Shown piece after piece: positions 34,969-35,424 of a DNA stretch of 64,000 bases (its first letter is position 1; every line of letters starts with the position of its first letter). This stretch comes from Escherichia phage REP4. The DNA is taken from the sequence record OQ174503.1. One strand, 5' to 3'. Both the position numbers and the translations under genes were made by a program. The notes under the pieces were generated by a model that was given only the letters and a program-made list of their open reading frames with translations, made no database searches and was not told the origin of the DNA.

Positions 34969-35424
34969 TTATTTTAAATCGTCTGCCCAATCGAGTTTAA
35001 GAGGCTCTTTGTATTCACGATCTAATACGACCGGAATTTGTACATCACCGCTAAATGATAAGGGTCCAACATTATAAGACAATGTTATATGCGGTGTGTA
35101 ATCATCAAAATCATGTGTAGCACCTAGTGCCCGCGCATACATGTGTCTACAGCGCAGATATTCAGAATCTAGCACAAGTACAAGAGTCGATCCATCTTGT
35201 GTTTTCCATACTTCTAAATGTCCAGAAGAAGCTACTTCAAAACTTCCGCTTGATGGAACATACGGAACATTTACTCTTGAATAACATATGGTCGAATGAA
35301 TTTTTTCTCTAGGAACTGGATTAGGAACACGTAAAGAGCGCTGGAGTTCTTCCAGCGCATCAAGTGTTAATTCTGAAAACTTAGCTGCTACATAAAGACC
35401 CGTTGAAAAGTCTTTAAATTCCAT
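34969..35424 (-). CDS. 57B: gp57B, 2H-phosphoesterase family (Acb1 anti-CBASS nuclease in T4)
   Basis: 151 aa; two H-x-T/S-x motifs (HSTI, HITL) typical of 2H phosphoesterases; position upstream of 57A. Confidence 0.75.

Follow-up and report, generated by a model that had tools for sequence, protein, structure and literature searches.

A T4-like coliphage appears to carry intact orthologues of both characterised T4 anti-CBASS genes, 57B (acb1) and vs.4 (acb2)

We examined two genes in a 64,000-nt stretch of phage DNA (the window, which means this stretch at its full length): 57B, and the open reading frame (ORF) at the position of T4 vs.4. The two are separated by ∼11 kb and belong to different gene blocks; their features are as follows.

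34969..35424, minus strand: 57B = acb1, 2H-phosphoesterase; 151 aa, ATG start, TAA stop, intact
35298-35281, minus strand: string HSTICY in 57B, aa 43-48
35287..35298, minus strand: first catalytic H-x-T motif of 57B, H43-S-T45-I (H44/T46 in T4 numbering)
35091-35074, minus strand: string HITLSY in 57B, aa 112-117
35080..35091, minus strand: second catalytic H-x-T motif of 57B, H112-I-T114-L (H113/T115 in T4 numbering)
35424..35666, minus strand: 57A, tail-fibre chaperone, 98% identical to T4 gp57A
34609..34896, minus strand: ipI, internal protein I, GmrS/GmrD restriction enzyme inhibitor, 99% identical to T4 IPI
23683..23949, minus strand: vs.4 = acb2, helical cyclic-dinucleotide sponge; 88 aa, ATG start at 23949
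23950..23985, minus strand: upstream extension of the vs.4 ORF to a TTG at 23985; outside the gene, 3' end of vs.5 in another frame

Window positions 34500-36000 are 100% identical to Escherichia phage vB_EcoM_G50 (Straboviridae, Tequatrovirus), one of 36 phage records with at least 99% identity to this segment. Judged by these matches, the window is that of a T4-like coliphage, Tequatrovirus. Coordinates in the window and in G50 (NC_054917) differ by 37033 at vs.4 and by 37032 at 57B. This change points either to a 1-nt indel at some place from 23.9 to 35 kb or to the window being a near-identical relative of the G50 record. The gene order of T4 is kept at the acb1 locus (trna.2-trna.4, ipI, 57B, 57A, 1, 3, 2, 4) and at the acb2 locus (vs, vs.1, regB, vs.3, vs.4, vs.5, vs.6, vs.7). 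The ipI gene lies directly downstream of acb1, and this anti-defence neighbourhood is that of T4; the adjacency of 57B and ipI has been remarked on by Hobbs et al. (PMC9117128).

The TAA stop codon of 57A overlaps the ATG of 57B (TAATG), which suggests that acb1 may be co-transcribed and translationally coupled with 57A. A promoter and terminator scan around 57B gave 11 sites vs. 9.4 expected from shuffles, that is, no enrichment. Because of this count we do not claim a dedicated acb1 promoter and rely on the overlap with 57A instead. Two promoter-like sites at 34955-34927 and 34589-34561 (both minus strand) share their hexamers and their spacing (TTTACA-17 nt-TACTAT), and each has a TG extension. 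One is located just upstream of ipI and the other just upstream of trna.4, and both resemble T4 early promoters; the promoter count across the region is no higher than the shuffle expectation. Elsewhere in the window, a tRNA cluster at 32534-33554 (minus strand) contains 11 tRNAs (Arg, His, Asn, Tyr, Met, Thr, Ser, Pro, Gly, Leu, and Gln). At this position T4 has eight tRNAs (Ile among them), together with segB, a homing endonuclease, and two small RNAs, rnaC and rnaD. The G50 annotation shows no gene of segB size there.

The preliminary description of this DNA had pointed to two H-x-T/S motifs in 57B, HSTICY and HITLSY, as the signature of an Acb1-type 2H phosphoesterase. Both strings were located in the intact ORF. 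Two or more H-x-[TS] motifs were reached in 16% of composition-preserving shuffles of the 57B protein, and the motif pair was rejected as stand-alone evidence. The motifs are thus present as described, but the pair alone is insufficient; since it does not exceed chance, the Acb1 assignment must rest on whole-protein evidence.

Such evidence supported the assignment. The 57B product is identical to residues 2-152 of T4 57B (NP_049750.1), the founding member of the Acb1 family and the accession named as Acb1 by Hobbs et al. (2022; PMC9117128), and at the DNA level 8 of the 456 positions differ from T4, all of them silent. PF23474 (Acb1) was the sole match in a Pfam search, with 202.7 bits (cut-off 27) and E = 2.6e-60 over positions 1-144 of the 144-position profile. 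In the PDB, the solved structure closest to 57B was the crystal structure 7T26/7T27 (Acb1 of Erwinia phage FBB1), with E = 4e-62 and 68% identity over 142 residues. The NCBIfam scan found no family matching the 57B or the Vs.4 product. It is the whole-length identity to T4 57B that, in our judgment, makes the Acb1 assignment decisive.

T4 Acb1 has a 2H-phosphoesterase fold with an HxT/HxT tetrad (H44, T46, H113, and T115), the stacking residues Y12, W74, F107, and W147, an adenine-specific contact at E141, and a C-terminal lid (PMC9117128). All nine of these named residues were found in the window protein at the T4 position minus one: the catalytic tetrad is complete (H43, T45, H112, and T114), the base-stacking aromatics are kept (Y11, W73, F106, and W146), and so is the adenine contact (E140). 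The C-terminus, which contains the lid region, is complete through residue 151. Loss of the catalytic histidines on careful alignment had been named beforehand as evidence that would count against the assignment; H43 and H112 are both kept, because the sequence is that of T4 Acb1. In the published work, the activity that degrades 3'3'-cGAMP was followed through fractionation and purified as T4 57B, H44A/H113A mutants were inactive, and T4 Δacb1 was restricted by CBASS operons (PMC9117128).

By analogy with T4, the 57B tetrad would act by metal-independent acid-base catalysis, with a strained cyclic oligonucleotide as substrate. The substrate would be held by the stacking aromatics Y11, W73, F106, and W146, with E140 reading the adenine N6, and would be cut on the 3' side of adenosine by way of a cyclic-phosphate intermediate. 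The substrates predicted to be linearised are 3'3'-cGAMP, cUA, cAAA, and cAAG, and not cGG. From the T4 work we infer that 57B would cleave CBASS cyclic di- and trinucleotides and rescue the phage from CBASS.

The tblastn identities of Acb1 among phage records are bimodal, with 498 records at 99% or above, 4 at 95-99%, and 388 at 80-90%. From this distribution, T4-like coliphages would seem to have two main classes of acb1 allele.

At the second locus, the preliminary description had proposed the ORF at the vs.4 position as a candidate Acb2, assigned by position and taken as the maximal ORF 23683-23985. The candidate held up, but its start did not: the TTG at 23985 was rejected in favour of the ATG at 23949. 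In T4 and in the G50 RefSeq CDS the gene has a length of 267 nt, the chain of PDB entry 7UQ2 begins with MIEDIK, and a GAGG is present at -13 to -10, 9 nt upstream of the ATG. The stop codon of vs.5 lies at 23942, and the extra 36 nt of the maximal ORF belong to the end of vs.5, in a different reading frame. In the window vs.5 (23942-24163, minus strand) encodes 73 aa and overlaps the start of vs.4 by 8 nt; in T4 the annotated vs.5 product has 58 aa, and 36 nt separate the gene from vs.4. The opposite end of vs.4 overlaps vs.3, the TAA of the former and the ATG of the latter forming TAATG at 23683.

The window Vs.4 product is identical to T4 Vs.4 (NP_049728.1) at 84 of 88 residues (95%), the differences being A43V, D45N, C50Y, and L60I. 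It matched 7UQ2 ('Vs.4') in the PDB with E = 2.3e-54, the Pfam family PF24729 (Acb2_Tad1_hairpin) with E = 1e-19 and 70.9 bits (cut-off 27), and PHROG 717 with E = 5.8e-32. Jenson et al. defined the Vs.4 family through PHROG 717 (PMC10097602). A lack of significant similarity to Acb2 was the other result that had been anticipated as damaging; the similarity is significant in both the PDB and the Pfam search, and therefore the assignment rests on sequence as well as position. On these matches we regard the ORF as Acb2.

The published structural work on Vs.4 describes a hexamer with three bound cGAMP and a Kd of ∼30 nM, the ligand being bound but not cleaved (Jenson et al., 2023; PMC10097602). 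Its contacts to cGAMP comprise stacking by Y8 and F82 and polar contacts by Y8, H11, K23, and R79, and the hexamer interface is formed by L29, A66, A73, and A77 (and F33) (PMC10097602). T12I, S74N, and A77I are loss-of-function alleles (PMC10097602), and Y8 and F82 mutants lose function as well (PMC10097602; PMC12657218). In the window protein the cGAMP-contact residues (Y8, H11, K23, R79, and F82), the hexamer-interface residues (L29, F33, A66, A73, and A77), and the screen residues T12 and S74 are all unchanged. We aligned 10 sequences at 52-95% identity, namely the window protein, T4 Vs.4, and eight tblastn matches. Residues 1-36 and 66-88 were nearly invariant and the contact residues invariant; the centre, residues 37-65, was hypervariable with indels, and all four window substitutions fall inside it. 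A homologue of Vs.4 with 76% identity is present in a Phapecoctavirus (Stephanstirmvirinae; MZ726793), outside the Straboviridae, which suggests horizontal spread of the family.

The ligand range of T4 Acb2 was measured by Cao et al., who reported a Kd of ∼84 nM for 3'3'-cGAMP, the same dinucleotides as for PaMx33 Acb2, and no binding of cA3 or cAAG (PMC10312549). The three-fold pocket of the T4 protein is narrower and is lined by Y37, A57, L60, D61, and T64; introducing D61R does not give it cA3 binding (PMC10312549). The window protein keeps Y37, A57, D61, T64, and T68, so that its pocket lining differs from T4 only by L60I. It has D61 at the position of PaMx33 R67 and T68 at that of T74, as T4 does, which places it outside the trinucleotide-binding subtype. 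Because the pocket residues are as in T4 Acb2 apart from L60I, the window Vs.4 is predicted to be a dinucleotide-only sponge that does not bind cA3 or cAAG.

The hexamer would sequester three cyclic dinucleotides in pockets between protomer pairs, where Y8 and F82 would stack on the bases and Y8, H11, K23, and R79 would make the polar contacts. Sequestration would keep the signal from effectors such as CapV.

The four substitutions, L60I above all, could nevertheless change the ligand spectrum of the window Vs.4 or impair it, in which case the phage would rely on Acb1 alone or have a sponge of different range. All four lie in the segment lining the region of the trinucleotide pocket, and L60 is among the residues listed by Cao et al. 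for the closed pocket. The allele is also rare, found at 99% identity or above in 8 of 1232 phage records (tblastn). We consider this reading very unlikely. The published dinucleotide-contact and hexamer residues are all unchanged, and the substitutions are conservative and sit in a stretch where homologues differ freely; T4 and CHI14 Acb2, which are homologues varying in that stretch, both bind cGAMP according to published work. Since D61R leaves the T4 pocket closed, a single L-to-I change is unlikely to open it. L60F was found in the sensitised-phage screen of Jenson et al., yet it did not abolish CapV inhibition (PMC10097602).

More specifically, the rare allele might have a shifted range, e.g., weaker binding of 2',3'-c-di-AMP (the Panoptes decoy) with 3'3'-cGAMP binding kept, or a partly open trinucleotide pocket; we give this version very little credence. 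If it were true, Acb2 would be tuned against guard systems through its hypervariable centre, which would act as an arms-race surface.

Existing annotation gives acb2 no functional name: vs.4 is called 'Vs.4 conserved hypothetical protein' in T4 (NC_000866) and 'hypothetical protein' in G50 (NC_054917). The RefSeq product name of 57B in both T4 and G50 is 'RNA ligase', PHROG 755 is described in the same words, and few phage records among the matches listed carry 'anti-CBASS protein Acb1' or 'phosphodiesterase'. LigT shares the 2H fold with 57B (2H superfamily). That 57B is therefore an RNA ligase or a LigT-type RNA-repair 2',5'-ligase/cyclic phosphodiesterase, acting on RNA ends and not on immune signals, is scarcely credible, given that the identical T4 protein is the purified 3'3'-cGAMP-degrading activity and its deletion sensitises T4 to CBASS (PMC9117128), that Acb1 and not a LigT family is the best and sole Pfam match, and that no ligase model in NCBIfam matches 57B. 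The 'RNA ligase' label was carried over from LigT-type 2H enzymes on the similarity of the fold and does not come from an experiment. Annotation is behind the experimental work of 2022-2023, and the main use of our finding is in annotation and host-range prediction, with little for discovery.

We are almost certain, judging from the sequence, that this phage carries intact orthologues of both characterised T4 anti-CBASS genes, 57B/acb1 and vs.4/acb2, and no sequence feature speaks against it. Their products are identical or nearly identical to the T4 proteins and keep every published functional residue. The biochemical activities and the anti-CBASS effect in vivo would be those published for T4. 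Acb1 and Acb2 have unrelated folds and act by hydrolysis and sequestration, respectively. Their spectra are expected from published work to be complementary, with Acb1 taking adenine-containing di- and trinucleotides and the T4-type Acb2 a broad set of dinucleotides, some of which are not cut by Acb1. The earlier suggestion of two independent anti-CBASS functions is therefore supported as likely, and it matches the published picture of T4 (PMC10312549; PMC12657218), which carries both Acb1 and Acb2 and for which Δacb1, Δacb2, and double mutants were made by Sullivan et al. (PMC12657218). The two-gene picture was already known for T4 and is seen here in a near-identical relative; it is not new. 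A 2025 preprint describes an 'ejectosome' anti-CBASS protein, Gp15 of vibriophage ICP3, together with a coliphage homologue. A counterpart of ICP3 Gp15 is not expected in a T4-like phage.

The phage is predicted to evade CBASS signalling through adenine-containing cyclic di- and trinucleotides by means of Acb1, and through a wide range of cyclic dinucleotides by means of Acb2. The same proteins are targets of guard systems. Type I Panoptes is triggered by Acb2, which is both necessary and sufficient for this, and T4 escapers carry acb2 mutations including F82C (PMC12657218). Type II Panoptes restricts Acb1-positive Tevenvirinae, which escape via acb1 mutations (PMC13577387). Since both genes are intact in the window, with F82, Y8, and the catalytic histidines present, we predict that both type I and type II Panoptes would act against the phage. 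These CBASS and Panoptes predictions are relevant to the choice of therapy phages against strains with such systems.

Compared with the known systems, the closest relative of the window 57B is T4 Acb1, which has the same sequence over all 151 window residues and the same place between 57A and ipI. T4 57B is annotated as 152 aa from a start one codon earlier (ATGATG), and the stop codon of T4 57A is TGA. The window has TAA as the stop of 57A, so that the first T4 start codon reads ATA; therefore only the second ATG can start 57B, and we regard the one-residue difference in length as an annotation matter. FBB1 Acb1 (7T26 apo; 7T27 with 3'3'-cGAMP) belongs to the same 2H-phosphoesterase fold family, and both of its HxT motifs align with those of the window protein. 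It is a different orthologue, with F and Y aligned to the window residues W73 and F106, still aromatic. A reading of 7T26 as T4 Acb1, by which the window would hold a diverged allele, was rejected; tblastn assigned the entry to FBB1 Acb1, and the T4 57B translation is identical to the window.

The window Vs.4 is closest to T4 Vs.4/Acb2 (7UQ2), which is likewise 88 aa long, 95% identical, and encoded at the corresponding place, flanked by vs.3 and vs.5. PaMx33 Acb2 (Huiting et al., 2023; PMC10312549) is of the same Pfam family and uses the same mechanism, a hexameric cyclic-dinucleotide sponge, although T4 Acb2 is only ∼24% identical to it (PMC10312549). PaMx33 Acb2 can, unlike the T4 protein, accommodate cA3 and cAAG as well, in a second pocket (R67 and T74; PMC10312549); in this trinucleotide-binding subtype (PaMx33/JBD67) a kinked helix opens the three-fold pocket.
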